Of a DNA stretch of 64,000 nucleotides, positions 1 through 62,079 are shown piece by piece. The notes beneath the pieces were generated by a model. It saw only the letters and a list, made by a program, of their open reading frames with translations, did not search any database and had not been told where the DNA came from. A program made the translations under genes and the position numbers. Source of the stretch: Eledone cirrhosa (taxonomy: Eukaryota); contig OZ024743.1 of NCBI GenBank assembly GCA_964016885.1, forward strand, positions 326,492,001 through 326,556,000, in the 5' to 3' direction. The stretch's first letter is position 1; each line of letters starts with the position of its first letter.

Positions 1-585
1 ACCCGATGCGGTTTGTCCATGTCCACATTGGCACATTCGGGTGATCCAGTCGATACCTGTCAGACAGTTCAAAACGTCTGAGCAGGTTGGTGAGGCTCTT
101 GCACCCTCATCCCCTATCCACTAGCCCCACACATCCCAGCGAGCATCCAAGATACCGTTCCAGTCGCCCACTAACACTAAAAAGCGGGACGTTCCAAGAA
201 AGGTCTCTAGACATCTGAAGAAATCTGGCCGTCCTGCCCCTGTTGGGGCGTAGACGGCTACTAGCCTGAAAGCATTGCCTTCGCTGCCGGTCACGTCCAG
301 CACCACCGACTTACCTTCTGGGGGTAGGAAGATGGCCCGTATCGCGAGATCCAAGCCTCTCCGAAAAAGGACGGCAACCCCTCCCCCCGATCCTGGACGG
401 CTGGGAGATGCGTATACATCGTAGCCGCCGAAGATCGGGGCGAAGGCTTGTGCTTCGGAGATTCTGGTTTCACTGATGGCCACCACATCTATGTTTAGTG
501 ACCTGAGGTCGTTGAGCAGGTGACCCTGCTTCCAAGATGACCCCAGGCCACGTGCATTTATACTTCCTATTCTGAGTACGGCCAT
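1..585 (-). pseudogene. LINE ORF2 APE endonuclease N-terminus, premature stop at 121-123
   Basis: MAVLRIGSINARGL...ISETR...VYAPTG...LVGDWN; nearly collinear with the ORFs at 4955 and 9742. Confidence 0.88.
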
Positions 586-617
586 GTTGGATGAGAAACG
601 GGGCAAGTAAGAAAGGG

Positions 618-2600
618 TCACTTACCTTGATCGTGTGGTGAAGGGACAGTAGAACTGTCACTTTCGCTGGTCATGCGTGTTTCCAAGAGGATGTCAGTGT
701 ATATCCTCTTGGTAACCGACCCTCTGAAGTCTCCAACGACGTTGGGGAATTTTTGCTTTAAAGGTTTGTACTGTTCTATTGAGATTTCGATTATGCTTAT
801 GTTTGTCGGGAGAGTTCTTGGTGTTGGTGGGGTGTAGTAGTTTTTTTCTGTGATGTCTGTGTGCTGCTTTATATATTGTATGAGTTCTTTTTTTGCCATG
901 TTTATGGCTGTGTACTTTTTGTGGGGAGGGGTGTTGCTGTTTTCTTCTTGTTGCTGTTTGGTGTGTGTGTGTCTTATTGTGTTTGCGTTGTTGGCGTTTT
1001 TGGTGATGCTGGTGGTGGTGTGGTTGTCGATGTCAGTGGTGCTTGTGGTGGTGATGGTGGTGGTGTTGCTGCAAGTTTCCTTGCTGCCTTTACCCCTCTT
1101 TGTATGCCTTCGCTTTTGGAGGGTGAATCTAAGGGTATTTTTCTTTTTTGTTTTTTTTTGTGGCAGACCGTTTGCCACTTCACTCCCGCCTCAAACTCCA
1201 TGTCGGATTCCGTGGCGTCTGGAAGGGGTATGTGCTCCACGGTTGTTGGTGGTGGTAGTGGAGCCCTCTTCGGCAATTTTGTTGCTGGTGTAGCTACTTC
1301 AAATGTAGCTATTGGTGTTGCCGCCACTGATGATGCTGCTTTAGTTGTCCGTGGCCTTGGTACGGGTGCTACGGACGTTGCCCTCCTACTCACCGTGGAA
1401 GGGGTTTCTGCGTTTGTTGCCTGCTCTGCTCTTGGTAGCAGCGGACCAGGTATTGGAAGGAGAGGGGCCTCCTTCTTCGCTGTCTTCTGCGGGCAAAAGG
1501 CCCTGAGGTGACCCTTCGACCCACAGAGATAACATTTTGGCCGTCTTCCTTCTACGCTTATAGGGAGTTGGAGTCCTTCCTCGATGTCTATGATATCGGG
1601 GATAGCGTCGATACATTCCTGGTCAGTTTGTATATGCATTTGCATGCCTATACCTGACCAGTTCTCTCTCCCTATTTTTTCTACTTGCAGCATGGTCGTC
1701 CTGTTCTCGATTCCAGCAAGGACAGACGCGGCCAGCCAAGGTATTGGCACGTCGGGTGGGACCTGGGTCACTTTGACCCTCACAATTGTCTGCCCGCAGT
1801 AGGAGGGCACCAAGACTATCTCCTCACTCTTTAGGGTTTCCAAAGAGTGAGACTTTGCTTCCTGGGGGGTGGCGAAAAGTACGTCTACTGTGGCGTACTT
1901 TCTGCCTCGGGTGATGTGGGTTTTGCGTGCCCAGACGCACCCCAAGGGCTTTTGGATTTGAGCCTCCGTGGCTCTCTCCACCCGATGTAAGATTTTGCTT
2001 CCGGTGCGGTAAGTCACCGTCCGTAGCTGCTGGTCCTTGAAAAAATCGGGTGGAGGTTTCAGGGAGACTCTATTGGCGCTTCTTGTCACCATGGCCCTTG
2101 CGACTGCCATCTCCTCCTCTGTGACTAACACTGTCTCGATATTTCGGGCGACACCTGCAAAAGAAATGGTCCCTTTTTCAGCAGCACCACTATTGCTGCC
2201 GCTATTGGTCTTACTGGTGGTGCTGAGATCGCTATTACAGATATCGATGTCATTGTTGTTGTTTTCGTTGGTACAGTTGTTGGTGTTGTTGTTGTTGTTT
2301 TCGTTGATACTGTTGCTGTTGTTACTGTTATTGTGGCTGTTGTTATTATTGTTGTTTTTGTTGATACTGTTCCTACTATTATTGTTGTTGTGGCTGTTGT
2401 TATTGTCATTGTTATTGTCGTTCTCGACCTTACCGCTGTTATTTTTGTTATTGTCATTCTCGACTTTACCGCTGTTATTTTTGTTGTTGCTGTTGTTATT
2501 GATGGTGTTGTTGTTGGTGTTGTTGTTGGTGTTGTTTGTGTTAGAAATATTTGTTAATTTTAAATCTGTAACAATCTTCTTTTCCTTTGTAATATTTTCG
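618..2600 (-). pseudogene. LINE ORF1 (nucleic-acid-binding protein, CCHC knuckle), frameshifted in an A-run near 1150
   Basis: ORFs 974..2710 and 618..1178 overlap; CX2CX4HX4C motif; similar to ORF1 of copies B and C. Confidence 0.8.
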
Positions 2601-2609
2601 TTTATATTT

Positions 2610-2657
2610 ACCCCCCACCCCAAAAAAAAATTTCTGGCCTTGTGCTTATAGTAGATA

Positions 2658-2700
<43 letters not shown>
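2610..2700 (+). mobile_element. 3' fragment of SINE family 1 with expanded (ATT)n tail
   Basis: tttctggccttgtgcttatagtagatatc-(att)n matches the SINE 3' end ctggccttgtgcctaaagtagaaacaattat seen elsewhere in the window. Confidence 0.65.
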
Positions 2701-2935
2701 GGACGCACATGTGTGAAGACAGTACAAATCTGCGGGGGGAAAGGTTCGTAACTTTAAGCTGTTTTAAAGTGTCATTTTTAATATTTTCTTGTCGTTAACG
2801 AAACTTAAGGTACACATCTTGGTTTCAAGAGGGGGATACCTCTCAATATTCGGGCTTTAAGCCCGAATATTCAGAGTTATTTTTAAAAAACTTCGAAAAA
2901 AATCGCTTTTCCACCAAAAATAAAAAAATAAAAAA

Positions 2936-4926
2936 ATGGAAATGTTCGACCTTGAAACGGTAAACAACGTTCAGGTCAAAAGTTTAAAAGCAGCCACTGT
3001 AGATTTCACCACGAATACGACGACTACAGTCATGCCTGTCATCCACTCTACTGAATGTGAAGGCAAAACTCAAAAGCTACCATCACAACCTTCTGTGATA
3101 GCAGCAGTATCATCTGAAAACGACATCACCACCACCACCACCGCCACCACCACCACCACAACAACAACAACTCAGAGCAATAATGACAATAACACCGACA
3201 GCTTCAATGTAAACACGGATGGCGGTGGCAACAGCATCAACAAACAAAACAACAACAACAACAACACCAATAACAACAGCAAGAATGACAACATCAACAA
3301 CAAGAGCATCAGAAGCACCACATTTGCTGCAGCAGCAGCAAAAACAAAGCGCTTATTGGATATTGATATTGATATTAGCGATAAAGACGAACAGTTGGCC
3401 CAGGCGTGGAGGCTAATTAAACGGGAGAAGTCCTGGGCAAACCTGACCATCCCGGACGGGGCAATAGCGGCCATGCAAAGGAGGACGGTGTACTTTCGAT
3501 GCATTTCGGTGCAGACACGAAAAGTGGAACTTGCCAGCCAAGCAGAGGTCGAGGCTGCTTTGGAGTACATCGGAAGTAACATAGAGTATAAAGCAAGACA
3601 CAAACAGTTCGGTAGCTACTCTTCAAAACCGAGGCCCTCGCTATTAAGCACTCGGTGACCCCCTGCAGAATGGAACGCATTATCATGCATCCGTCCTACA
3701 AGGGTAAAAGGACAGTAAAGGTGCGCATTCCCAGCATCCCACCAGGAATGAACATATGGTGGCTGCTGGGATGCGTAATCGAGGAGGGGACAGACACTAC
3801 CCTCCTGGATATCAAAAGGACAGAGAGAGAGGACTGGTCCGGAATGGATTTGGAGATTCTTCTCCAAATGAAACCGGGGGACATGAACAACATCCCGGAT
3901 TTTGCCCGCCTGCAGGACGGGACAACAATCCAACTAATCACTGACAGAAGAAGGCCACGCTGCTTCGTCTGCGGGGAAGCAACACATCTGCAAGCCTTCT
4001 GCCCTCAGCGCAAAAATGCAGGGGGTCGCAAACCTCCTTTGTTGCCAACGCCAGTGTCAGCGCGGAAAGCTGCACCACCACCACCACCAAAAACAACACC
4101 AAGACACGGACACCAACATCAAAAACAGCCGGATCACCACCAACACCAAAACCAATCCAAGGGGAAAACGAGGAAAGCTCTCCCACTCCCCCCCCCCCCC
4201 CAATTATACACATAGACAAAACAATAAACGCACATACAGACACAGAGACACTCACAGCCACAGACCCTTTGTTTTTCCAGCAGCGAAGATGAAGGAAAAT
4301 CCAAAAGTGCAAAAAAAAAAACAGACAAAACTCACCAAAAAAAAAAGCCCCAACAAAACACAAAAACATACACAACAAAAAATACAGACACCACTAACAC
4401 AAACACTTCCCCAATAACATCACCACCAACAGCAACATCGACCCCCCCCCCCAATCCCCGAAACGCAAACAGCCTAAACAAACACAAGTACAAATAAACA
4501 TACAAATACCTGAAATTGCAGACACCACACCTACAACAAACACAGACATACCCGAAACAACACCACCAAAACCATCACCACCACAGTCACCAAAACGAAA
4601 ACAAATAAAACCACACCAACAAAATGTTAAAAACTTCGTGCTTGTCAGAAGGGCCAACGATAAACTGATGGCCCTCTTAGCACGAAGCGAGGACATTGAA
4701 ACAGAGGGGGGATTTTTGAAATGAGCACATATTGCGTGCCAGAAGATTTGCTTCTGGTCCGAATGTCACTCGTTCCTTCAAAGAAATTCGAGAGAGCTTT
4801 CCTCAAGATGTGGGAACCCCGAGTGTGAAACCCACATCGAGACTTTTAAAGGCGTTCCCAAAAGAAGCCCCACCAACCATGGAGGTCGAACCACCCGACC
4901 TTCACAAGACCCCGGGAGGTAAGTAA
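2936..4926 (+). pseudogene. LINE B ORF1, frameshifted
   Basis: ORF pieces 2936..3658, 3655..4215 (CFVCGEATHLQAFC knuckle) and 4732..4926. Confidence 0.8.
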
Positions 4927-4954
4927 ACCTTCCCTCTCTCTCTAGCTTACCAAC

Positions 4955-7900
4955 ATGGCCATATTAAGAGTAGGAAGTTTAAATGTTCGCGGCCTGGGGT
5001 CAACCTGGAAGCAGGGTTGCCTGCTCAACGACCTCAGATCGCTGGAAATGGATGTGATTGCCGTCAGCGAGACCAGAATTTCCGACACGCGCGCACTAGC
5101 CCCCATTTTCGACGACTATCAGATCTTCGCATCTGTTAGCAGGCCGGGAATGGGGGATGGGGTGACAGTGCTGTTTAGGAAAGAACTGGATCTCGATGTA
5201 AGGTCGATCTTCCGGGACCCGGACGGTAAGTTGGTGGTCTTGGATGTGAGCAATAGCGAAGGTGGTGCCTTTAGACTGCTGGCCGTCTACGCCCCTACAG
5301 GGGCCGGACAACCGGACTTCTTTAGGCGCCTGGAGACCTTTCTTGGTACGTCTCGCCCTTTACTGTTAGCGGGGGACAGGAATGGCATCTTAAACGCACG
5401 CTGGGATTGTGTGGGAGTAGCCTATAGGATCGGGGGGTGCAAAAGCCTCAAGCACCTACTCAGCCAGTTCCAACTGTCTGACAGGTATCGACTATATTTC
5501 CCCAATGTGCCAGTATGGACATGGACCAACCGAATGGGGTCATCTAGATCGTATATAGACAGGATCTTCATTAGGAAAATAGATGGAAATAGTGTAGGCT
5601 GCCCACTTTTTAAAACGGTCGCCTATTCAGATCACAAATTTGTGATCTGTACAGTTGACCTAGATAAAATGCGTAGGTTAGGACCTGGTTACTGGAAGCT
5701 GAACATGTCATTTCCGGCACGTAAGGCTTACAGGGACCGAAACAACAATTTAGTTAAGCAAAAGTTGACAGGGGGGATCATCAACAACAGATGGTGGGGA
5801 GCTCTCAAAAGAGAGATTAGAGTAACTTCGATAGAGTTCAGCAAAGAACTAGCGTTAGAGAAAAATAGAAAGGAGGGGGAGCTGGTAGATAAGTTAGACG
5901 AGGCTATTTGTAGTGGCATTGCTGCTGACGTGCTAGCGGCGAGAATGGCATTAGACCATTTCTTCAATGCGAAACACGAAAGTTGCATTGTCAGAGCTAA
6001 GGCGCGTGCGCTGAGAAACGAGGGAACCAAAGCTGTTCGATGGGCCCGCGTGGCGGAGGCACAGCGTGGTAATAAAATCACAATTCGGTCTTTTGTGAAC
6101 CGAGGCGGAAACGAGATAAGCGATTCCAAGCGGGTGTGTGAGGCCTTTCGCCAGCACTTTGCTCGGTTGTTCGGGGAAGTGGCGAGTCAGAGAGAGTAGC
6201 GGATTTCAGTCCCTACCTTGACGGCTTGCCGCGCATCTCGACGGTCGACGCTGAGCGCTGCGAAAGGCCGATTACCTCAGCCGAAATTCAGGACGCCCTT
6301 GTCGGCTACATGAGGCGCAAGTCACCCGGTTTGGATGGCCTACCCTACGAGCTTTACGTAAATATGCCAGACTTGTTCTCCGATCCCCTCGAAGCACTCT
6401 ACTGCAACTGGCAGCAGAATGGGAGTATTCCCAGTTCTGTGATAAGGAAAGACGAGAACAAGAGGGATACATTAGACAACTTCAGGCCCATAAGTCTGCT
6501 CAACACAGAGTTTAAGATTTTGGCCAAGGTGTTAGCAAAGAGATTGGCGCTTGTCGTCGAGGAATTGGTTGGAGAGGCGCAAACTTGCGCAATCCCAGCC
6601 AGGTCCATACACGACTATCTCCACCTCATGCGATACATCATAGAGAGGGTAGGATGTAAATCTGGCTTCGGTGGGGCATTCGATAGGGTCGACCATCGGT
6701 ATCTGGAGTTTGTCCTCAAGGCAGCTGGCTTCGGCCCTGTCTTCAGAAGCTGGATCGCTGCAATGCACAGCGGCACACGCTCGGTGGTCAAGGTTAATGG
6801 CCACCTCTGGGAACCATTTCGACTCTCCCGATCGGTCCGTCAAGGATGCCCTCTCTCTTCCCTTCTGTACGTATTGACTCTCGAGCCTTTACTGCGGAAG
6901 CTGGAGCTGTTGCAGGGCATCCCGCTCGAACCGTGACGTAGAAAGGCCGTGTCGGCTTATGCGGACGACATCACCGTGATGGTGTCGAACACCTCAGAAA
7001 TAGAGGTGGTCGGCACCTTATTGAAGGAATATGAAAGGTTGACAGGAGCCAAACTTAACCCGGAAAAGTCGGTGGGCTTGCAGCTCGGAACCTGGAGAGG
7101 CAAGCCCATGCCGTCCAACAGCGTTGTGGGGCGCTGGACGGACGGACTGGTAAAGTTGCTCGGGGTTTGGTTCGGACCAGACCTCCAGGTGGAAAAGAAT
7201 TAGGACGAAGTAACGAGCAGAGTAGCCAGTCTCACCCAAAAATGGGCTGGGAGGAAGCTATCACTGAAAGGTCGCGCGGATGTGGCGAATGCGTACATCG
7301 CGTCCGTCATCTACTACCACCTGACTGTCGTGCCTTGCCCCCGTCCGCGCCTCGTCAAGTTGGAACGGCTCCTCTTCAAATTCTTGTGGAGGGACAAGTT
7401 CCGTTGGTGAGGCGGTCCATCTGCTGCCAGCACCCGCTACGCGGAGGGCTGGGCATGCCGTGGCTAATGATGCGCAGACATGCGTTGAGGCTGCGACATC
7501 TCCAGATATTCTGCCTCAACGGTGAACAGGTGTGGTCGCCGTTTATCAGACGGGTCTTTCCGCAGCTCATTTCTTTGACTGAGCTGCAGTCCTGGGTCAA
7601 GAAGAGACTGAGACTGGGTGACTGGCACCTGGAATGTTGCCAGGCACTCACTGCCCTCTACCAAGCGGGCAATGCGATCAGTGGAACTTCCACTCTCGAG
7701 TTCTATAGAGGATTAGTGGTGGGCAAGTGTGATGACGCACTCGGAGAAGCTTTGGGCCTCGACGAAGTCGAACTGACCAGTCTGTACCGGAGGAGTTTTG
7801 AGCCGGGGACGATGGACAATTTCCAGAAATCCCTCGCTTGGCCGTGCTACCGGGGGGCACTGCCGGTTCGGGATAAACTCTACAGGCGCGGAAGTGCTGT

Positions 7901-8323
7901 CAGACGGACCTGCCCAAGATGCGCACAGAACGACGAAACCGTTCTGCACGCACTTGTCCAATGTCCGTGCATTGATTTGTGGAGTTATGTCGAACAGCTA
8001 CTGTCGCATGTGGAACGAATCCGGCTATCGGCCGAGTCCATAGTGAAGATCGACCCGCCGCCTTCCTTAGGTCAGGAAGAGCAGGAAATTTTCCTCTGTC
8101 TGGTGGCAGTTGCGAAAGAGGTTATATGGTGGACCAGGTTGAAAGGACTGAAGACAGACACTTTTTATTCGGCCAATCCCTCATCAACTTCTTTAAGTTT
8201 CACCTGGAAAGGAGGGTGAGGGTGGAGAGAGAAGTGCTGCCCCCCAGTACATTTGCTAAAAGGTGGATGAATGTGGCGAGAATGGCCCGTGTGAATGGGC
8301 CTACTCTGACCATGCGCCTATAG
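4955..8323 (+). pseudogene. LINE B ORF2 (APE endonuclease, reverse transcriptase, C-terminal CCHC)
   Basis: APE motifs; RT motifs KSPGLDGL, NFRPISLLN, AFDRVDH, VRQGCPLS, AYADD; CPRC..ETVLHALVQC. Broken by several stops and frameshifts. Confidence 0.92.
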
Positions 8324-8589
8324 GCTAGCTAACTTGACGAGAGGGGTGCTCTCCCTGGGCGCAGGGTGGTTCAGGATTGGAGGAGTACCCGAGTCACCCC
8401 AGGGTCGTCCACCCCCTATCGGGGTATTTATTTTGTTATATTTATGCATAGTTTATTTTATATTTTTATATCTTCATTGTTAAATTAGTCTTGCCATTGT
8501 GCACTTTTACTCGGCCTTATTGTAAACCCCCACTGTCCCTGTCTTTGTATTGTCCCCTACATGTCGGCCCTTGTGGCTAATAAATGAAA

Positions 8590-8633
<44 letters not shown>

Positions 8634-8837
8634 GGCGACCTACGTAGTAAATCGTATTATCGTGAGCTCCGCAAAGGTTTGTTATTTTCAGTTGTTTAAA
8701 ATTGCCATTTATGGAAAAAAAATTTGTTAACTGTATATAAGTACACATACATTGTTTTCTGAAAAGGACACTTAAAAATTTTGGGGGCCTTGAGCCCAAA
8801 TTTTAAACTTTTATAATTATCAAGCAAAAATTTTCCT

Positions 8838-9707
8838 TTGAAAAAAATCCTGGACGACTCAGGGTCACACCTTCCACACAAACTAAAACCTCACACCGAC
8901 ACCACCATTGTAAATATTACTACGTTTGCCAACATTAAAAATATAAGCAGTAGCAATATTTTAAATTTGTCTCATGCAGACATTCATTTCCCGCCATTAC
9001 CAATGACTGCAGGTGTTGAAGCCGCCACCCCCACCACCGCCACAGTGACAACAGAAACAAAAGAAATAAATAAATTATCTTGTGATATCGAAATGGATTC
9101 ACCCAAAATGAACTCTTCCACACCGAACACCACTGACGCCACCACCACCACAACTGAAACTAAAATTAACAATAACAAAAATAACGATAACAACAACAGC
9201 AACAACAACAATGAGTAGCAAAAAAGTGCGAAGCAATCCAGGTAACTCAGGAGGAATTAGAAGGAGCCAAAAGAATGGTAAAGAAAGATGGGTACAGGGT
9301 CAGCCCCCCCCCCTAATAAAACGGAGCATCAGCGCCTATGCACCGTATCTTATCGAACGATTAACATAAAATCGCGCCGAGTGGAACGGGCATCCGAGTC
9401 CCAAATCCAAAAAGCTTTGGGACAAGTGTGGGCAAAAAAAACCCACATCAGACGTGGGCAGAAATATGGAACCGTGGACGTGATGTTTGGAACACCACAG
9501 GAGGCCAGAGAACACTCCATGACCCCATTAAGAAGTGACGACGTCACACTCGTCCCAAGCTATTGTGGCCAGAGACTCGTGAAAATCAGGGTGACCCACG
9601 TTCCACAAACACTCTCCAGGAGGATTTATAAGGACATCCTTCCTGAGGAGGCCAGAAGCAGTGAAAAGGATGGGCAAACCATCCTTCCTCTACGAGAAGT
9701 AAGGTAA
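8838..9707 (+). pseudogene. LINE C ORF1 with an internal deletion removing the zinc knuckle
   Basis: RRVERASESQIQKALGQVWAKKTHI aligns to copy A; the sequence then jumps from VTHVP straight to the C-terminal RRIYKDIL segment. Confidence 0.75.
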
Positions 9708-9741
9708 GTGGTCTTTCCCATCTTTTCCACTCCATTTCAAC

Positions 9742-12700
9742 ATGACCTCACTCAGAATAGGCAGCATAAATGCGCGTGGCTTGGGGTCGTCATGGAAGCA
9801 GGGCCACCTGCTCAACGACCTCAGGTCACTAAACATAGATGTAGTGGCCATCAGCGAGACCAGAATCTCCGAAGCACGGGCCTTCTCACCGATCTTCGGC
9901 GGCTACGATGTGTACGTATCTCCCAGCCGTCCTGGATCGGGGGGAGGAGTTGCTGTTCTTTTTCGGAGAGGTTTGGATCTCGCCATACGGTCCATCTTCC
10001 TGGACCCAGAGGGTAAGTTGGTGGTGCTGGACGTGACCAGAGGAGACGGGCAACCTTTCAGGCTAGTGGCCGTCTATGCCCCGACAGGAGCAGGGCGGCC
10101 TGATTTCTTCCGGCGTCTGGAGACCTTTCTTGGAACGTCCCGCTCTTTAGTGTTAGTGGGCGACTGAAACGGGATCTTAAATGCACGCTGGGACTATGTG
10201 GGATTAGCGGATAGGGGAAAAGGGTGCAAGAGCCTCACCAACCTTCTCAGGCGTTTTGAACTGTCTGACAGGTACCGATTGGATTTCCCGAATGTGCCAA
10301 TATGGACTTGGACAAATCGAATAGGGTCATCCAGATCATATCTAGATAGAGTATTTTGTAGGGAAATAGATAGGTCTAGCATAGGCTGTCGACAATTCAA
10401 GATAGTCAGCTACACGGACCACAAATTCGTGATCTGTGTGCTTGACTTAGTTAGGCTTCATAGACGAGGACTCGGCTACTGGAAGCTAAACGCGTCTTTA
10501 CCAGCGCGCAAGCCTACAGAGACCGGATTAGCTGGCGTTGACGGGGGCCATCGTCAACAACAAGTGATGGTTTGCTCTGAAAAGAGCGATTAGAATAGAG
10601 TCCATTAGGTTTAGTAAGGCTTTAGCAATAGAGAAAAATAGAGCAGAGGGAGAACTAGTTAGAAAATTAGACGAGGCGCTTAGCAAAGGTATCGCGACCG
10701 ACGTACTTGCGGCGAAATTGGCCCTTGACCAATTCTTCAATGCAAAGCACGAAGGCTGCGTTGTCAGAGCTAGGGTGCGAGCTCTCAGACACGAGGGGAC
10801 GAAAGCCGTTCAATGGGCCCGAGTATCGGAGGCGCGTCGTGGCAACAAAGCCACGATCCGGTCTGTGGTGGACCACGACGGGCGCATGCTACTCGATCCC
10901 GGGCAAATATGTGAAGCTTTTCAGCGACACTTCGCACAGCTGTTCGGGGGCAGCGGTTGGACACATCGAGGGATGGACTTTAGTGTCTACCTCGACGTAC
11001 TGCCGCGGCTCTCGGCCACAGAGGCGGAGTGTTGCGAAAAGCCGATAACAGCCGCTGAAGCACGGGAGGCAATGACTGGTTGCACAAGGGGTAAATCGCC
11101 TGGTTTGGATGGTCTGCCCTATGAAATTTACGTACAGACTTGTAGATAATATAGATAATTTCAGGCCCATAACTCTGCTATACACAGAGTTCAAGATTTT
11201 GGCCAAGGTGCTAGCAAAGAGGTTGGTGCTTGTCGTTGGTGGTCTGGTGGGAGAAGCGCAGACATGCGCCATTCCCGACAGATCCATCAACGACAACCTC
11301 CACCTCATGCGATACATCGTAGAGAGGGTAGCTAGGGAACCTGGCACGGGTGGGTCCTTGATCAATTTAGATCAGTCGAAAGCTTTCGATAGGGTCGACC
11401 ATCGTTGCCTAGCGGCAGTCCAGAGGGCGGCTGGCTTTGGGCCCGTCTTCAGAGGCTGGATCGCTGCCATGCACAGCGACATCTGCTCTGTAGTGAGAGT
11501 GAACGGTCACCTTTCAGAACCGTTCAACATCATGCGCTCGGTCCGCCAAGGATGTCCCCTCTCGTCCCTCTTGTACGTATTGACTCTCGAGCCATTACTG
11601 CACAAACTAGAGACATTGAGGGGGGTCCCGCGCGAACTAGGATGCGGAAGATCCGTGTCAGCATATGCGGACGATGTCACCGTAGTGGTGTCGAACGCCA
11701 AACACATCGAGGCGATCGGCACTACACTAAGAGAATACGAAGCGGTGACAGGAGCAATGATCAACCAGGAAAGTCAGTGGGCCTGCAGCTCGGCACCTAG
11801 AGAGGCAGGTCCATGCCGTCCAACAGCGTCGTCGGGCGCTGGACGGACGGACGGACCGGTTAAATTGCTAGGGGTCTGGTTCGGTCCGTAACTCCAGACG
11901 GACAAAAACTGGGACGAGGTGACGATTAGGGTGGCTTCTCTCGCCCAGAAATGGGCCGAGAGGAAGCTATCCCTGGTCAGGCGGTCCATCTGCTGTCAAC
12001 ACCCGCTACGTGGAGGGCTGGGCATGCCTTGGCTGATGATGCGCAGACACGCGCTCAGGCTACGACATCTCCACCTCTTCCTCGACGGAGATCAGGTGTG
12101 GTCGCCGTTTGCTACACACGTTTTTCCCCAGCTCGTCTCCTTGACGGAGCTGCAGTCCTGGGTCAAGCGAAGACCGAGAGGGAGCGCTTGGAGACTGGAA
12201 TGTCTTCAGGCGCTCACAGCCCTCGACCAATCGGGCAATGTGATCGGTGGAAACTCCACCTTGGCGTTCTATAGGGGATTAGTGGAGGGGAAGAGCGACG
12301 ACGTACTTGGAGAAACTCTAGGCGTCGACGAAAATCAACTAGCCAATCTCTTCGGAAGGACTTTCGGGCCGGGGCCTATGGACAACTTCAAGAAATCCCT
12401 GGCCTGGCAGTGCTACCGAGGAGCTTTGCCAGTTCGGGATAAACTCTACAGGCATGGAGGTGCCGTCAGCCGGGCATGTCCGAGATGCGCGCAGGGCGAT
12501 GAAACCGTCCTGCACGCACTCGTCCAGTGTCCGAGCATTGCTGACTTGTGGGTTTATGTCGAACACCTGCTGTCACGTGTAGGACGGATCCAGCTATCAG
12601 CTGAGTCCATCGTGAGGATTGCCCCGCCCCCTTCCTTTAGCCGGGAAGGGCAGGCAGTTTTTATCTGTCTGGTGGCCATGGCGAAAGAGATAGTATGGTG

Positions 12701-12893
12701 GACACGTTTGAAAGGGCTGAAGACGAGCACTTACCTCTTCGGTGATGCCCTGATTAACTTTTTCAAATTTCATTTGAAAAGGAAAATCAGGGTAGAGAGG
12801 GAAGTGCTCTCTTCCCAGCATTTTGTTGAAAGATGTGTGAGAGAAGCAAGTATGGCCCGAATGAATGGGCCTTCTCTGAGTATGTGTCTGTAA
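9742..12893 (+). pseudogene. LINE C ORF2 (APE-RT-CCHC), fragmented
   Basis: APE motifs; LDQSKAFDRVDH, RQGCPLS, AYADD; CPRC..ETVLHALVQC. Confidence 0.92.
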
Positions 12894-13142
12894 ATTAAAG
12901 GTGGAAAACTGGGAGAGGGCACTTGCCCTGGTGGTCAGGGCCACTGTGGTCTTTTAATGGGCTTTCTCCACAGATGTCCCTCGGAAGTCTCCCCCCCCCC
13001 CCCTATTGGGGAATTTTTCTTTGTTATTTTATTTCAACCTCTGTTTTTTTACACGCAGAAATGCCCATTTGTACCGTCCTGTATTGTCCTGTACTGTCCT
13101 TAATGTCTACTTTATGTAAACCCTTGTGGTTAATAAAGAAAA

Positions 13143-13182
<40 letters not shown>

Positions 13183-13475: not shown

Positions 13476-13653
13476 AATAATTGTTTCTACTTTAGGCACA
13501 AGGCCAGCAAATACCCAGTGCATTACTGGTACTTTATTTTATCGACCCCGTAAGGATGAAAGGCAAAGTCAACCTCGGCGGGATTTGAACTCAGATCGTA
13601 AAGGGACGTAACTATGCTGGAAAGCATGGCGTCCGACCCACTGCCAATCCACC
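13476..13653 (-). mobile_element. tRNA-derived SINE family 1
   Basis: Reverse complement of the copy at 22208; B box gagttcaaatcc, core gcctttcatccttacggggtcgataaaataaagtaccag. Confidence 0.9.
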
Positions 13654-22102: not shown

Positions 22103-22458
22103 TCAACTTTCCCAGTCCGTCGTGTAGATCTCCCATTCAGTTTGGGGTGGGTGAGACATGTCTTCTCTAGCGAAAATGGGTTTAGCTTTCATTATGTAAA
22201 ATCTCCCGGTGGATTGGCAGTATCAGTAGAGGGTCGGACGCCATGCTTTCCAGCATAGTTACGTCCCTTTACGATCTGAGTTCAAATCCCGCCGAGGTTG
22301 ACTTTGCCTTTCATCCTTACGGGGTCGATAAAATAAAGTACCAGTAATACACTGGGTAATTGCTGGCCTTGTGCCTAAAGTAGAAACAATTATGTAAAAT
22401 CTCCCCATTTTGCATCATTTCTCCCCGTTTTGGGGCACTTTTTTTCATGGCAAGTCTG
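22103..22458. mobile_element. Putative hAT-type MITE relic hosting a SINE
   Basis: Imperfect TIRs caggcttgtca / tggcaagtctg. Confidence 0.4.
22208..22389 (+). mobile_element. SINE family 1, full length, with TSD attatgtaaaatctccc
   Basis: A box tggcagtatcagtag, B box gagttcaaatcc; direct repeat on both flanks. Confidence 0.92.
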
Positions 22459-22734: not shown

Positions 22735-22787
<53 letters not shown>

Positions 22788-22789
<2 letters not shown>

Positions 22790-24310
22790 ACAACCTAGCC
22801 TTTGAACACCTAAGAGTCAATGAATTATACACAGAGATCCCGGACATGACTGCAGCCCAGATCGAAAAACAGACCAACTCCATCTGGTTCGATATCTGTA
22901 GGAGAAGACAACTCCCAAATAAAGTTAAGCTCAACTACACCACTAGAAATAGCAGACTGCCCACTTTCTACCACCTCATCAAGACCCACAAGAATAGTAC
23001 TAAGACGCAAATAAGACCCATCGTCTCTAGCATAGAAGGACCCCTATACAAAATTTCCTGGCTCCTCTCCCAGGTCCTCAAGCCTCTACTCTCCACCTTT
23101 CCCGGGCATGTCAGTAGCTCCGACGAAGTTATACGTAGACTACACCAACTCCAGCCAGAACAACTTAAACTAAATAAATACGCCTTTAGCCTCGACGTTG
23201 TCTCCCTCTACACTACAGTCCCCGCTCATCCAGCTGTCGATTTATTGACGAACTGCGTGGTCGCAGAGGACATCCACTGCTACGGCCTCCACCCGACGGA
23301 CATACACCAGCTTTTGTCCTTCACAGTAAACAACACGTACTTCACCTTCCACCACCACACATACAGACAGACAACAGGATTACCCATGGGATCCAGCCTA
23401 TCGGGCCTGCTGGCAATCACCTACATGAACCAGCTAGAATGCCGAGCCCTCAACACCTGCCATTCCTATACCTTCTTCACCCGATATGTAGATGACATAC
23501 TCATCCTTACATCATCCCGTGAGGAGGCAGATAAAATATACACAACATTCTCCAGCATGGACGCCAGTATAAAGTTCAGCATGGAACACCCCGATGACCG
23601 CGGATCCCTATCCCTACTGGACTTCCAACTCAGGGTAACAGAGGAAGGCAACATCCACACCTGCTTCTATAAAAAAGCCGCCAGCAGGGACCTGTTCGTA
23701 CATTTCAGATCGGCCCTCCCACTCGGTGCTAAGTTCGGATACATAAGGAACGAACTGGCACGTATCAAGAACAAATGCACCGACGCCAGAGACCGAGACA
23801 CACACACCACACATTTCCTGGAAGTACTCAAACTGAACGGATACACGACATCCACCACAAACCGTGCCAGAAAGAACAGAGGACACCACACCCGAGGCAC
23901 TAATACTTGCTTCCTGAAGCTCCCACACTTCAGTGAAGAAACAACAACAGCCATCCGCAGAGCTATCAGACGAGAGGGACTAGATATCCAACTGGCCCAT
24001 CAACGACACAGACCTATGCCACCAGGCTTACGTCGTATACAGACTAGAGTGTGACAAATGCAACAACTTCTACGTAGGTAGCACCACCAGACCACTCCAC
24101 ATAAGAATAAAAGAACACCTCAATACTAACGCTTCCTCATTTAAGAAACACCTAGTTAAATGCAAAAACACCGACAAAACCATAACAGTTAGGATAGAAA
24201 CTAAGGAAAGCAACCTCGGCAATCTTAGAATTAAGGAAGCACTAATTATAGATAAAACACAACCACCAATCAATAATAGACTAGAACTCAACACCCAATT
24301 TATAACCTGA
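22788..24310 (+). pseudogene. PLE polyprotein, frameshifted by a deletion at about 23997 between RT and GIY-YIG
   Basis: ORF 22693..24054 plus a GIY-YIG frame downstream; the deleted linker is retained in the copy at 15490-15575. Confidence 0.88.
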
Positions 24311-24869
24311 TAGAGCTTCTAGCCCCATATTTACACACATCCCACACACACTCACGCACTCACGCGCACACACACACACGCTTACACCTCCACTTATTCT
24401 CTCTCACACATACACACACAAAACCAGTTCCAACACCAGATAACACCTATCCCCCACATTTACGAATAGACATATCTTCTCACACTCACACACACACACT
24501 CACATACTTACACCTTCATGCATTCTCCCACACACTTAAACAGGCATGTATAAAAAAAATAAATAAATAAATTTAAAAAAAAACCCTTTTAAAGGGAGAC
24601 AACTCTTTATCCACCTAATTTTAACTCTTTGACATTAGAGATAGAACAGATACTCTATACCATTTCCTGTCAGCATGACTTGGCAAGCTATTTAGAACAC
24701 TGGTTTGAGAACTTTACTTCCCTCTGAAGAAGAGATATTATCTCGAAAATGAAGGACATTTAAATAAATCTAAGGTAAAAGACTAATTGTCAACAATATC
24801 TTTTGCATTTACATTCTTTATTCTATGTCTATACCTGCATTGTTTTGGCTTTATTATACATATACAAAC

Positions 24870-29920: not shown

Positions 29921-30149
29921 CGGTAAAAACTTAAAACTAAAACTGAATACTAACTAATACCTATTACTAATTTATACTTATTCCTAATTAAACTATGTAT
30001 TATTAATATATATCATTACGGGATCGATAAAATAAAGTACCAGTAATACACTGAGTAATTGCTGGCCTTGTGCCTAAAGTAGAAACAATTATTAATATAT
30101 ATCATGTTTAACTAGAGTTATTACAAGCGTTGCCTTAAAAAAATATTAA

Positions 30150-33195: not shown

Positions 33196-33313
33196 TGTGA
33201 GTAGAGTAGCGTGTGTGTGTGTTTGTTGTATGTATGAGTGTTCCTGTGTGCGCGCATATGTATGCGTGTGTGTGTGTCGTACGTATAAGTGTCAATAAGT
33301 GATTTTTTTTTTT

Positions 33314-37697
<4,384 letters not shown>

Positions 37698-38471
37698 GTA
37701 TATATATACAATGGCAAATGTATGTATACATGTATACACGTTAAAGAGATAAGATACGTAAAAATAATCACAAATCATCAACTTACATATCTAAAGTTTG
37801 TAAGTATGGGTTGGGCGGTTATGAAACCAAGTATAGGAAGTGTTATTTTATCATTATATGAATTGCTATTTTATCAGAGAGATTTTTAAAAAAATAAAAA
37901 CGTCTATTCCATTGTGATAAAGTGTGTTCCATTAGAATCCGTTTCGTTCCCATTAAGAAAACGAAAACAACCAAAGAGTATAAGAGTGACGTCACTATTT
38001 CCACTGCAAACAAAATGAGACGGGAAAAGAAAACACCTCTCGTCCATAAACTAATGTAGTTAGCGTCGTCTAGATAAGTAATTATGTTCGAAGTATTTAG
38101 AGAACATCAGTTAAGGCATGTTTTCTTTATAGGAATGCATACGGAATACATTATAAATAACTGCCATCTCTCATCATGTAAAATATATGTATTTAATTAT
38201 CCATTTCGTATTGAGTTCTATATCGGATAATGTACGCTAATAAATTATACACAACTACAATATTACGGTATTCGCTCACACACACAGACACACACACACA
38301 CACACACATACACACACATACACACATACACACACACATACATGCATACACATACACATTCATATATATATATACACACACATGCACACAAATATATATA
38401 TATACATACATATATATATACATATATATGTATATATATATGTATATATATAAATACATATATATACATAT

Positions 38472-42248: not shown

Positions 42249-42430
42249 GTGGATTGGCAGTATCGGTAGAGAGTCGGACTCCATGCTTTGAAGCATAGAG
42301 TTATGTCCCTTTATGATCTGAGTTCAAATCCCGCCGAGGTTAACTTTGCCTTTCATCCTTACAGGGTCGATAAAATAAAGTACCAGTAATGTACTGGCTA
42401 ATTGCTGGCCTTGTGCCTAAAATAGAAACA
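42249..42430 (+). mobile_element. SINE family 1 with TSD attatttattcaaagtaa
   Basis: Full head, core and tail; 18-bp direct repeat on the flanks. Confidence 0.92.
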
Positions 42431-42512
42431 ATTATTTATTCAAAGTAATCCAACTTATTTTACTAATGGGATAAAAAATTATAAACCGTACGCAGTCCCG
42501 CGCTCCTCCCTT

Positions 42513-46388: not shown

Positions 46389-47142
46389 ATCGGTGGAGGG
46401 TTGGACATGCTTTCCAGCTAATTATGTAACTTTGCCTTTCATCCTTACGGGGTCGATAAAATAAAGTACCAGTAATGTACTGGGTAATTGCTGGCCTTGT
46501 GCCAAAAGTAGAAACAATTATTTATGGTGGATTGGCAGTATCGGTAGAGGGTCTGACACCATGCTTTGACGCATAGAGTTACGGCCCTTGTCATTCTGAG
46601 TTCAAATCTCGCGGAGGTTAACTTTGCTTTTCATCCTTACGGGGTCGATAAAATAAAGTACCAGTAATACACTGGGATAATTACTGGCCTTGTGCCAAAA
46701 GTAGAAACAATTATTTATGGATTGACATAAGGACAGTGGATTGGCAGTATTGGTAGAGGGTTGGACGCCATGCTTTGCAGCATAGAGTTACAGCCCTTTA
46801 TGATCTGAGTTCAAATCCCGCCGAGATTAAGTTTGCCTTTCATTCTTACAGGGTCGGTAAAATAAAGTACCAGTAACGCACTGGGGTCGATTTAATCGAC
46901 TTTCCCATCCTCCCAAATTGCTGGCCTTGTGCCTATATAAGAAACCATTATTTATGGATGGTCAGTATCGGTCGAGACTTGGACGTTATGCTTTGCAGCA
47001 AAAAGTTTCGCCCCTTTACGGTCTGAGTTCAAATCCCGCCGAGGTTAACTTTGCCTTTCATCCTTACGGGGTCGATAAAATTAAGCACCAGTAATGTACT
47101 GGGGAAATTGTTGGCCTTGTAGCAAAAGTTGAAACAATTATT
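46389..47142 (+). mobile_element. Head-to-tail cluster of four SINE family 1 copies
   Basis: Copies at about 46389, 46526, 46736 and 46956, each ending gaaac(a/c)attatt. Confidence 0.9.
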
Positions 47143-49845: not shown

Positions 49846-50336
49846 GGAGACACACATTGGAGACTAGTATAGTAACGGTTGAGGAATAAATATATTTCAG
49901 TAAGTATTCAGAAATGAAGATATTGTAACATAATCTCCGATTAAGTGATCAGGTCTCACTCTGCATACAAGATTTTACAGCCATGTGTAAGGTGAGCCCG
50001 ACATAAACAAAAAGAGCTGTCAAGCGTAAACCATTGGATGTTACAAGGACTCAAATAACAGTACATCCTCACAGCAGTTCAGAAGAGATCGAAGGAACTT
50101 AGCAGCTCGTAAATAGAAAACAAATATATATGTATATTTATTATTATAATTATGCCTTATATGTCGTATGTGTGACTGAAATATTCCAGTCGTATTAACA
50201 TTAGCAACTACTGCACAATACAGCCAATGATGGCAGACTTTAAGTGGCCACAGGACCTGCTAGAAATAGCAGTCATCTCCTTCAAATCAAAGTCTGTCTT
50301 AGGAAGGTTATATTACATAATGTAGTCTTAGATATA

Positions 50337-50521
50337 ATTGTTTCTACTTTTGGCACAAGGCCAGCAATTATCCAGTGCATTACTGGTACTTTATTTTATC
50401 GACCCCGTAAGGATGAAAGGCAAAGTCAACCTCGGCGGGATTTGAACTCAGATCGTAAAGGGACGTAACTATGCTGGAAAGCACGGCGTCCGACCCTCTA
50501 TCGACACTGCCAATCCACCGC
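50337..50521 (-). mobile_element. SINE family 1 with flanking direct repeat gtcttagatataat
   Basis: Full-length reverse copy; the flanking repeat reads attatatctaagac on the element strand. Confidence 0.9.
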
Positions 50522-50629
50522 CCTTAGATAGTCTTAGATATAATATGTCTGAAAATATGACTGGAAACGCTTTTCGTTATTGGCCAGGGCTGAGATTAAT
50601 CAACAACTACCACACAATGAATGATTGAA

Positions 50630-51417: not shown

Positions 51418-51585
51418 ATAATTGTTTCTAACAAGGCCATCAATTTGGCGAGAGGTATAAGTTGATTACAATGACCCCAGTGCTTGACTTGTACTTTATT
51501 TTATCGAATCCGGAAGGATGAAAGGCAAATACGACCTCGGCAAAGCATTTGTCCAACACTCTAACGACACTGCAAATCAACCACC
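51418..51585 (-). mobile_element. Diverged SINE family 1 relative
   Basis: gtactttattttatcga..ggaaggatgaaaggcaaa..gacctcggc core. Confidence 0.7.
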
Positions 51586-52035: not shown

Positions 52036-52588
52036 TCTTAGACATGAGCCCAGTACAGCGTCAATTACGATTAATGGAGAATCAACTATTTGGTTCCGGA
52101 CTTCATATTGAGTGGAATAGAATAGACCTCCATCGGTTTCGACGATGAGTGTTCCATCCTACTCACGAAATTAATGTGTAAGTGGCTGGGCATTCCACAG
52201 ACACGTGCAGCTTTAACGTAATTCTCGGGTAGATTCAACATGACTGAATGTGTGACAAAGTAAACCCTTTGAATTACATGTACAGTCCATTCCACAGACT
52301 TCCAAACAGTTTTATTTAAATAAATAAATAAAATAAAAATGGTGTAGATATTACAATACAATGGGAGGAAACATAATAATAGCACTGATAATGTCACAGG
52401 TGATGACGAAAGAACTTTGATAGACTATATATATATATATATTTATATCAATATTTTTAACCGTTGGTCAAACAATGAGAAACATTGATTGCCAGACAAA
52501 TTAACTATGGAGATATAAAAGATAGAGAAGTGAAAACCAATCCAAATCAAACAGTGAATGTGTTTTATTATTATTTCTGGGAATAGAG

Positions 52589-52797
52589 CGGTGGATTGGC
52601 AGTATCGGTAGAGTCGGACACCATGCTTTACAGCATAGAGTTACGGTCCTTTACGGTCTGAGTTCAAATCCCGCCGAGGTTAACTTTGCCTTTCATCCTT
52701 ACGGGGTCGATAAAATAAAGCACCAGTAACGTACTGGGTCGATTTAATCGACTTTCCCCAAATTACTGGCCTTGTGCCTATACTTGAAATCATTATT
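52589..52797 (+). mobile_element. SINE family 1 (long variant with gtcgatttaatcgac hairpin)
   Basis: Head, core and 3' end ggccttgtgcctatacttgaaatcattatt. Confidence 0.9.
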
Positions 52798-57215: not shown

Positions 57216-57580
57216 TAGATCAGTTTTATAAACAAAAGTGCTTTATATCAGTTATAAAAATATTTGCTCGTTGTATCCCAACAAATTAAATATAACTTCT
57301 ACATATATATATATATATATTTATATTTATTAAAATAACAAATTAAAGCAAAGAATCGCTGCTTTCACCCTTAACGGGATCTTCTGAAACTAACAAAGTC
57401 AATCTGTAAACGCAGAAGTGAATATTTCAAAAAAGGTTGCAACCGGAGGAAGACAGAAAAACGATACTTTGGTCCGTGGAAACGTTCCCTGGCAAAGAAT
57501 GGGAAAAAACGAATATAATACGTCATTATTTGGAGCGGTGAAAAACAATTACACGCAAAGACAAAACCACGTTTATGGTA

Positions 57581-60500: not shown

Positions 60501-60860
60501 CAAACAGTTCCGGCCTCTCTTCCGTTTGTTAGTGGTGCCGCAAGTGCTGCAGGTGTCGATTTAGAGGGGTGGGGTGGGGCGTGGGGCCGAGGACTGGGGC
60601 ACCGAGCGGCATCAGGGTGGGTATCTGGTGTGTGTGGGTGGAAGGGAAAGTGCTGGTAAGACGGCAGCATAGCTCACCTATATATATGGAGGTGCCAGAA
60701 AACGAGAGGTAAAAGGGGCTGCATGGAGGGGGAGACACAGAAAGGTAGAATGGCAGTAAATGAATGAGTGAATGGATGGATGTACACAAAAAATGGGGAG
60801 GGGGGTGAAACAAGGGGTTGTTCCCAGCGGAAAGACCCAGAGTTCAGCACGCACACATGC
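57581..60860 (-). mobile_element. CRE-like non-LTR retrotransposon with restriction-like endonuclease, frameshifted
   Basis: RT: GIRPIAVG, QLGVG..GGCE, KLDMRNAFNS, GVQQGDPLGPLLF, VWYLDD. CCHC: CRCG..DSFGLHPLSC. RLE: RH..LN, KRPDG, LVWD, AE..K..KY. Confidence 0.88.
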
Positions 60861-61171
60861 GAGCAGTTTGTCATAGACGATATTCTCAATGGACGCGCTT
60901 ACAATATTTGAATATAACTGAACGGTTGTGTCATTTAATTTGAAAAGTGGAGCAAAGTAATAGGAAAATAGTGAATTTGGAGTGTCAATCCCTTGTGATT
61001 TTTTTTTTTTTTTTTCAATACCGGACTTACAGTTTTCGAGATTTATACTCATTTTTTTTTTTTTTTCCTTCAAAAGGATGGAGGCGTTTTATCTCCTCAT
61101 GAAACTGACATTACTTAATGTTGTTCGTCATCTATGGCTTATTCATATGTATTATTTCATAATTAATAAGG

Positions 61172-61447
61172 GCGGTGGATTGGCAGTATCGGTAGAGGGT
61201 CGGACGCCATGCTTTCCAGCATAGTTACGTCCCTTTACGATCTGAGTTCAAATCCCGCCGAGGTTGACTTTGCCTTTCATCCTTATGGGGTCGATAAAAT
61301 AAAGTACCAGTAATGCACTGGGTAATTGCTGGCCTTGTGCCTAAAGTAGAAACAATTATTTCATAACTCTTACGGGGTCGATAAAATAAAGTACCAGTAA
61401 TGCACTGGGTAATTGCTGGCCTTGTGTCTAACGTAGAAACAATTATT
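61172..61447 (+). mobile_element. SINE family 1 plus a duplicated 3' half
   Basis: Full copy 61172-61360 and a repeat of its 3' part at 61369-61447; attatttcataa on both flanks. Confidence 0.9.
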
Positions 61448-62079
61448 TCGTAACTCTATAGAACTATTAGAATGTTTGTGCAGTGTTCTGTGTCCAGCCA
61501 GGTTTGTATAACAGGTAAGAAAAATGATGATTCGGTGACGGTTTCTTCTGATAGGAGCCTCTTCCACGTCGGAAGATCGAAGTGTGTTTTCTTGTCTTCT
61601 TCAATACTTTCATAAACGGCTGTTTTAGTTAAGGGTGAAAGCAGCGATTCTTTGCTTAAACTTTAATCTGTTCTTATAATATATTTCCCGCTTCGTCCTC
61701 GAGGATGGACCCTAATTTTGATAATCAAAAATTTGAAAAAAAATAATAATCAACCTTCGACCTCCAGGACGCATGGTATAAAAGAAGTTGTAGACTAATA
61801 TTCTATTAGGTGGTTCATAGAGACGCTCTCTGGCAATGAACGGAAAAAAACGAAGATAATACGTCATATGTGTAGCGGGGAGAACAATTACACGCAAAGA
61901 CAAAACCACGTAAATGGTATAACTGAAGTCGTAGACTAAAATTCTAACTAGGAAACCGAATGATTCTTGGCTTTAATAAATATTTGCTCTACGGTTCTTA
62001 TATATTTGATATATATTTATCCTTATCGAGCCCTCTTTGGATTTTAGTCTTCAAATTTATTATTATTACTATATATATT

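Follow-up and report, generated by a model that had tools for sequence, protein, structure and literature searches.

Which enzyme moves an abundant SINE of the octopod Eledone cirrhosa, and what does it read in the SINE RNA? The question is raised by a 64,000-nt stretch of the 3.0-Gb genome (G000:C4:326492001-326556000; hereafter "the window", meaning the whole stretch analyzed), in which copies of the SINE lie beside LINEs of a Tx1-like family. The sequence-only reading of the window had proposed that the SINE shares its 3' terminus with these LINEs and is mobilized by an L1/Tx1-clade element through this tail. From the comparisons described here, the SINE is very probably mobilized by the Tx1-like family. 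The two have a common terminus and a common insertion footprint, LINE copies with unbroken ORF2 are present, and each element is found nested in the tail of the other. We further propose, with a probability of about 0.65, that the SINE is copied in trans by a Tx1-like ORF2 protein that would recognize the shared tail, beyond the AUU repeat.

Layout of the locus

LINE B (2701..8591, plus strand) is a Tx1-like element of near full length with broken frames, in which an ORF1 region (2924-4215, plus strand) is followed by ORF2 pieces (4946-8219, plus strand) covering the endonuclease, RT, and zf-RVT. Its 3' terminal motif, the segment in common with the SINE, occupies 8566..8591 on the plus strand, starts GGCCCTTGTG, and contains a 4-bp stem flanking a CTTGT loop, AATAAA, and GAAA. 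All strings quoted in the sequence-only reading are present in the window, but the start given there for this tail, 8563, is 3 nt early. An (ATT)14 tail follows at 8592..8633 (plus strand), and LINE C (8634..13143, plus strand), also Tx1-like, broken, and with an internal deletion, starts immediately 3' of it. LINE C ends in a terminal motif at 13119-13143 (stem AACC/GGTT), followed at 13144-13181 by its (ATT)n tail, and the two span 13119..13181 on the plus strand. The 5' part of LINE A, a third Tx1-like element, lies on the minus strand at 1..2560, with an approximate boundary; its 3' end is beyond the window (locus L189) and has the same terminal motif and (ATT)n tail. The 3' fragment of a SINE, carrying an (ATT)n array (2629..2700, plus strand), abuts the 5' end of LINE B, which thus sits in a SINE tail.

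The other SINEs on the plus strand are a short form at 22208..22388 with a 17-bp duplication starting with ATTAT (22191-22207 and 22389-22405), a 5'-truncated copy at 30012..30091 and a copy at 42249..42434 (each with an 18-bp duplication, ATTAT start), four copies head to tail at 46427..47140 (46427-46520, 46526-46713, 46727-46950, which is a long form, and 46955-47140), a long form at 52583..52795, and a copy with a tandem 3' half (87-nt period) at 61165..61445. The minus strand has SINEs at 13478..13653 and 50335..50526, the latter with a 16-bp duplication starting with ATTAT, and an older, truncated copy at 51431..51541. CCTTGTG cores of the SINE are located at 22367, 46925, and 52770. The full pattern proposed earlier for the shared terminus (CCTTGTG-N2-TA-N4-6-GAAA-N2-ATTAT) was found 10 times in the window, in 2 LINEs and 8 SINEs, although the TA after N2 is not constant; the common forms have GGCCAA in the LINEs and GCCAA in the SINEs.

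The Tx1-like LINE family

Domains for endonuclease (PF03372), RT (PF00078), and zf-RVT (PF13966) are present in LINEs B and C in broken frames. Elements of the Tx1 clade have an ORF1 with a CCHC knuckle, and the ORF1 region of LINE B contains a zinc knuckle of the form CX2CX4HX4C (3961..4002, plus strand), which was read from the translation and has no Pfam match. A relative, P0001, which is ~70-75% identical to A/B/C, scored 174 bits against human L1 ORF2p and at most 88 bits against R2. Its scores against fish proteins were 288-305 bits, and three of these proteins are named TX1 by their sources, these being automatic names. In an RT tree of 34 rows, the family and the fish TX1-named proteins were split from RTE, CR1, and Dong at 99/99, and the octopod elements branched together with unnamed relatives as the sister group of the fish proteins named TX1. 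A homologue from Argonauta is 66% identical to the RT of LINE C. By these sequence similarities the family is placed in the L1 group, and we call it Tx1-like because the tree held no L1-proper row; the ESM Atlas returned no clade name for it.

Two exact LINE-tail patterns gave 2,851 and 11,721 genome matches, i.e., at least 14,500, while their reversed controls gave 0. Sequence upstream of the first pattern was related to B or C at 30 of 30 loci (at four loci the relation covered just the last 24-32 nt), and ORF2 similarity lay within 1.5 kb of the second pattern at 25 of 30 loci. ORF2 was free of stop codons in 50 of 50 scored genome matches. Among the first 20 of these 50 unbroken copies, all had (ATT)6-22 against the 5' end and 19 had the tail motif; the minimum 5' array, 18 bp, fits the duplication length reported below. 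The (ATT)n arrays hosting Tx1 copies often belong to the tails of SINEs or of further Tx1 copies, and insertion into such tails leads to tandem stacks such as B-C. Tx1 tails at 5-6 kb spacing on one strand were seen on G000:C1 (for example, at 37102971-37212467 and 441098534-441134911) and at 2701-13181 of the window, and these same-strand series are tandem stacks from insertion into each other's ATT tails.

Several further features of the family were noted. Tx1 insertions of only 25-35 nt occur at L053, L058, L066, L080, L224, L246, L254, L255, L257, L268, L271, and L272; they end just upstream of the hairpin proposed below, where truncation is possibly preferred. Inserts in the range of 25-50 nt were seen as well, some of them inside SINE tails (L224, L244). 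Dong/R4-like (AAT)n tails in the opposite orientation often adjoin Tx1 copies and SINEs (L003, L004, L008, L018, L029, L109, L189). A metagenome scan yielded 56 distant relatives (best segment 21-56%, mostly below 35%), none with the motif at its 3' end, and these therefore carry no information on the direction of tail transfer. One such relative, L352, has a poly(A) end followed by apparent U2 snRNA sequence, as in Keno elements.

The SINE

The SINE is ~185-225 nt long, non-coding, and dispersed, with 5'-truncated copies, duplications, and a simple-repeat end; it does not contain AATAAA. Its exact 32-nt tail has 110,142 genome matches, and the 112 merged matches in 790 kb of evenly spaced stretches extrapolate to ~400,000 copies. 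We infer that it is a Pol III transcript with a tRNA-like head, in which motifs resembling boxes A and B were seen by eye. ARAGORN found 0 tRNA genes within the window, and Rfam gave no tRNA match at window positions 61100-61500. Median divergence was 7.1% for the short form and 12.1% for the long form, and 3.4-6.4% for the Tx1 subfamilies. The comparison of ages suggested by the sequence-only reading thus gave overlapping divergences, but the SINE is somewhat more diverged, and the Tx1 sample is biased young, as its copies were picked by exact motif. SINE 3' halves also occur as tandem arrays at L139:3749-4300 and at 61282-61457 of the window (58-nt and 87-nt periods). A search with the SINE motif gave no match in the portions covered of paper supplements, including those of PMC5804259 and the 2026 Octopus vulgaris annotation.

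The shared 3' terminus

We constructed a profile of the SINE tail from the 22 nt preceding ATTAT, leaving out the ATT repeat itself; its rows were the 95 of 120 tailed SINE matches (790 kb) having ATTAT 22 nt after CCTTGTG. The background consisted of 3,352 other ATTAT-preceding sites, from which SINE matches and Tx1 tails had been removed, together with 300 shuffles. LINE B scored 15.0 bits and LINE C 13.5 bits, and these scores were reached by 2 of the 3,352 background sites, both of which look, by eye, like old SINE tails, and by none of the 300 shuffles. The claimed sharing of a 3' terminus between the SINE and the Tx1-like LINEs was thereby confirmed. The tail of LINE A, which was taken from outside the window without motif selection, scored 8.6 bits (5/3,352 sites and 0/300 shuffles as high). 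Altogether 10 of 11 Tx1 tails passed the profile, a count that includes eight further tails (7 passing) that were chosen by motif and are thus partly circular; the single miss, L219, had its anchor placed 2 nt early.

The same profile was applied to 12 non-Tx1 termini (4 CR1, 2 RTE, 2 Dong/R4-like, 2 Ingi/I-like, 1 Hero-like, and 1 Penelope; clade labels were assigned here from domains, tails, and the tree). None passed, and the best reached 0.9 bits (102/3,352). No clade better than Tx1 thus appeared among the 12 sampled termini, and the shuffles were beaten; these LINE 3' ends are a sample, and for two CR1/R1-like groups no clear 3' end was obtained. When the profile was widened to 30 or 36 nt, the score was little raised or was lowered, which limits the common segment to ~22-25 nt. 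The likeness between SINE and LINE ends ~25 nt upstream of the repeat, and the spacing to the ATT tail is identical in the two.

Some candidates were rejected on these data. The motif is not a duplicated target in place of LINE sequence, because genome-wide it terminates unrelated insertions, and it is unlike the 5' flank of LINE B. The CR1 family with an (ATT)n tail was rejected as a partner on its tail score of -12.1 bits and its footprint (1/23; see below), and RTE because its tails carry other terminal repeats and show no match.

Insertion footprint

A duplication was regarded as informative when it had at least 10 bp and was not a simple repeat. Informative duplications with a start at ATTAT, in phase with the tail, were found in 36 of 115 SINE copies (median 16 bp). 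Of 36 truncated Tx1 copies, a set picked for short tails, 13 had one (median 17 bp, which includes a few bases of 5' microhomology), but only 1 of 23 truncated copies of the CR1 with an (ATT)n tail did. Fisher's p was 0.68 for SINE versus Tx1, and 0.008 and 0.005 for these two against CR1. The remaining 79 SINEs and 23 Tx1 copies had no informative ATTAT duplication; 11 of these SINEs had a duplication starting elsewhere, 3 of the 11 being tandem arrays. In unselected Tx1 copies the duplication is hidden in (ATT)n, and some duplications are apparently 6-12 bp. For RTE, no copy among the 7 that were truly truncated reached 10 informative bp of duplication; this sample is thin, 16 of 23 seemingly truncated copies being other short elements with an RTE tail. 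The base preceding the duplication was C or T in 13 of 13 Tx1 copies (C 7, T 6) and in 26 of 36 SINEs, and in 91% of 36 in a broader set from which tail-nested SINEs were left out. The SINE and the Tx1-like family thus share a footprint, a C or T followed by an ATTAT-initial duplication of 16-17 bp, which the ATT-tailed CR1 does not have.

The two elements also meet at individual sites. Copies of one repeat were hit at the same target site by a tiny Tx1 insert (L246) and by SINEs (window 42249, L118), and SINE sequence was found within 140 nt after 19 of 86 Tx1 tails versus 69 of 5,000 random positions. The Tx1 duplications at L066 and L224 include SINE sequence, which means that Tx1 moved after the SINEs there, and at L084 an apparent SINE lies inside a Tx1 tail. 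The footprint, a test beyond those suggested in the sequence-only reading, agrees with the earlier proposal in its first half, that an L1/Tx1 element mobilizes the SINE; the second half, that it does so through a shared tail, is a reading that the sequence suggests, from a shared part of only 22-25 nt.

Recognition of the tail and alternative explanations

Mammalian L1 requires only poly(A), and the Tx1-like family might move the SINE in a similarly relaxed way, an AUU-repeat end being sufficient and the 22-25 nt likeness being left over from the event that gave the SINE its ATT end. We consider this unlikely, at perhaps one chance in a handful or slightly better, and the evidence on it is divided. 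In its favor, the footprint identifies the enzyme and not the RNA feature that is read; against it, the same footprint is nearly absent from the ATT-tailed CR1, although a relaxed enzyme might be expected to copy part of the CR1 RNA. Also against it, the motif is better conserved among subfamilies than both the remaining UTR and ORF2: A, B, and C are 83-88% identical in the last 24 nt, whereas identity is 43-55% between -75 and -175 and 74-77% where ORF2 ends. This conservation in the LINE tail could instead serve AATAAA processing, a signal absent from the SINE. Further in favor of relaxed copying, the match is short, below the lengths in published pairs. In the crocodilian counterpart, SINEU, the tails are poly(A), and a LINE sharing the 3' end of SINEU-1 was not found (PMC4494074).

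A putative hairpin bears on the same question. In a four-pair stem round CTTGT, both partners differ in 3 of the 4 pairs (GGCC/GGCY, AACC/GGTT, and, in the SINE, TGGC/GCCW), so that pairing is preserved across the LINE subfamilies and the SINE, which argues against relaxed copying. The covariation score was 0.42 versus 0.18 for shuffled rows (1/500 as high) and at most 0.25 when the stem was slid; the calculation used 14 related, hand-picked rows, ignored their relatedness, and took the structure from the same rows. Folding favors the relaxed alternative. SINE tails do not fold more stably than shuffles (z -0.17 to 0.27), LINE B has z 0.38, and only C and A reach about -2. In three Tx1 tails other than that of LINE B, the closing pair had a probability of 0.80-0.93; in LINE B it was 0.01, and in four whole SINEs 0.00-0.35. 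The fourth stem pair is intact in only 48 of 95 SINEs.

It is improbable that the true partner is another LINE, unsampled or extinct, from an older Tx1 lineage or another clade, through which the Tx1 tails would resemble the SINE. The restricted sample of 12 non-Tx1 termini, the two CR1/R1-like groups without a clear 3' end, and the somewhat greater divergence of SINE copies than of sampled Tx1 copies leave some room for it, as does a SINE stem that differs from those of all Tx1 subfamilies seen. However, an intermediate LINE tail, combining the SINE stem with AATAAA, was sought genome-wide and rejected, since all 5 matches to this pattern are inside SINE bodies. Among (ATT)3+ arrays in 854 kb, moreover, the clusters with CCTTGTG-motif ends are all SINE or Tx1, and neither CR1 (1/23) nor RTE (0/7) has the footprint. 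Chance likeness between two AT-rich ends, noticed afterwards, is very improbable: the motif is short and the pair was chosen post hoc, but the background and shuffle scores, the independently fetched tail of LINE A, and the independent agreement of the footprint all oppose it.

Proposed mechanism and its implications

Under the preferred reading, in which a Tx1-like ORF2 protein copies the SINE in trans and recognizes the shared tail, ORF2p would bind a short stem capped by a CUUGU loop, with an A-rich spacer 3' of the stem. Its endonuclease would nick the bottom strand at 5'-ATAAT/R-3', the AUUAU end of the RNA would pair with the freed primer, and the target duplication would come from a second nick at a distance of 14-18 bp. 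This series of steps is modeled on target-primed reverse transcription, which is well established. The SINE would need only ATTAT as a target, and the LINE would go mostly into longer (ATT)n arrays. The SINE tail would likely have originated as a very short, 5'-truncated Tx1 insertion, although the reverse direction is also compatible with the data.

More tentatively, and with slightly less than even odds in our estimate, an animal element of the L1 group (Tx1) may read a very small 3' signal, consisting of four stem pairs and a CUUGU loop located 16-17 nt before the AUU repeat, and in this way drive a SINE that is among the most abundant in an octopod genome. If so, stringent recognition would survive in the animal L1/Tx1 branch, and the SINE tail would have been gained from a truncated Tx1 insertion of 25-35 nt. 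This bears on a stated open question, whether the L1 group was ancestrally stringent and was relaxed later. The analysis also names a likely driver for a cephalopod SINE with at least 110,000 copies, and an element that targets (ATT)n and leaves fresh (ATT)n tails would account for the tandem stacks of LINEs and SINEs. Natural compensatory changes in the stem, together with copies having unbroken ORF2, make tail recognition experimentally testable.

Relation to known SINE/LINE pairs

A SINE driven by Tx1 and tail pairs of the L1 clade are both on record (PMC4494074; PMC3472496) and provide precedents for the present pairing. For SINEU of crocodilians, Tx1-Mar was inferred as the driver from target choice and overlapping ages (Kojima, 2015; PMC4494074). 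As described there, SINEU and Tx1-Mar resemble the present case in joining a SINE to a target-preferring Tx1 group, with tandem insertions around a duplication. In contrast, SINEU combines snRNA heads with poly(A) tails, and the present SINE a tRNA-like head with an (ATT)n tail; the 3' end of the latter is shared with a LINE, whereas no LINE was found to share that of SINEU-1 (PMC4494074). Kibi and Koshi, described in the same paper, are Tx1 elements that target the microsatellites (TC)n and (TTC)n; insertion into simple repeats is common to them and the present family, whose target is (ATT)n (PMC4494074).

In plants and algae, ZmSINE2 and ZmSINE3 pair with LINE1-1_ZM, and SINEX-3_CR with L1-1_CR (Ohshima, 2012, PMC3472496; Ohshima, 2013, PMC3747384). 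These pairs are like the present one in that a SINE and an L1-clade LINE have in common a 3' end that is conserved and a hairpin that covaries, but those of maize and Chlamydomonas share 50-80 nt, with 50-100 nt for plant and algal pairs, compared with 22-25 nt here (PMC3472496, PMC3747384). L1-clade tails make up 3 of the 58 SINE/LINE pairs listed in Table 1 of PMC3747384 (maize and Chlamydomonas), and that table has 0 Tx1 and 0 cephalopod pairs. The SINE partners named for molluscs, in the covered text of three reports, are of the CR1, L2, and Nimb types (PMC4758252, PMC4824008, PMC11481361). Stringent pairs of the CR1, L2, RTE, and Nimb/I types likewise combine a tRNA-like SINE with a LINE-matching tail and the same terminal repeat, but they belong to other clades and have longer shared tails (PMC4758252, PMC4824008, PMC11481361); bivalve pairs share 35-61 bp (PMC11481361).

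The term "Tx1" does not occur in the main text of PMC4824008 and PMC11481361. OR1 and OR2 (Ohshima & Okada, 1994) are tRNA-derived octopus SINEs, compared here by their description in PMC4758252 and PMC4824008. The 2026 Octopus vulgaris annotation reports recently active L1-Tx1 and SINE families, and the word "partner" is absent from its covered text. A Tx1 tail shared with a SINE was not found in the covered parts of this literature. The partnership would be of a known kind, and what is likely new is a tail shared with a Tx1 element.

Other mobile elements

A second short element was seen in a set of loci on another contig (L421-L450, G000:C1:149660-3473374). At 14 of 30 loci it has an RTE-like 3' end (~120-165 nt) with an (ATG)n tail, and the RTE end sits behind a common non-LINE upstream sequence; two further loci have a different common upstream sequence and a 39-nt RTE end. 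These RTE-tailed short elements are likely classical RTE-partnered SINEs, and the tail shared with RTE (~120 nt) is far longer than the 22-25 nt segment shared by the SINE and Tx1. An RTE-like LINE at 33300-37700 of the window has a 1,026-aa frame with endonuclease and RT; its C-terminal C2H2 zinc fingers are encoded in a second frame. The UTRs of this element contain (ATT)n arrays, which Tx1 copies target elsewhere. A young CR1 family (L176, L186, L187) has many open frames of 957 aa, an (ATT)n tail, and 4,671 exact tails, and its (ATT)n tails serve as Tx1 targets. A Penelope-like element at 22780-24330 of the window has an RT and, by eye, a GIY-YIG-like region. On the minus strand, positions 57560-60900 of the window hold an RT element without APE endonuclease, which likely has a C-terminal restriction-like domain (Hero/NeSL-like, by eye).
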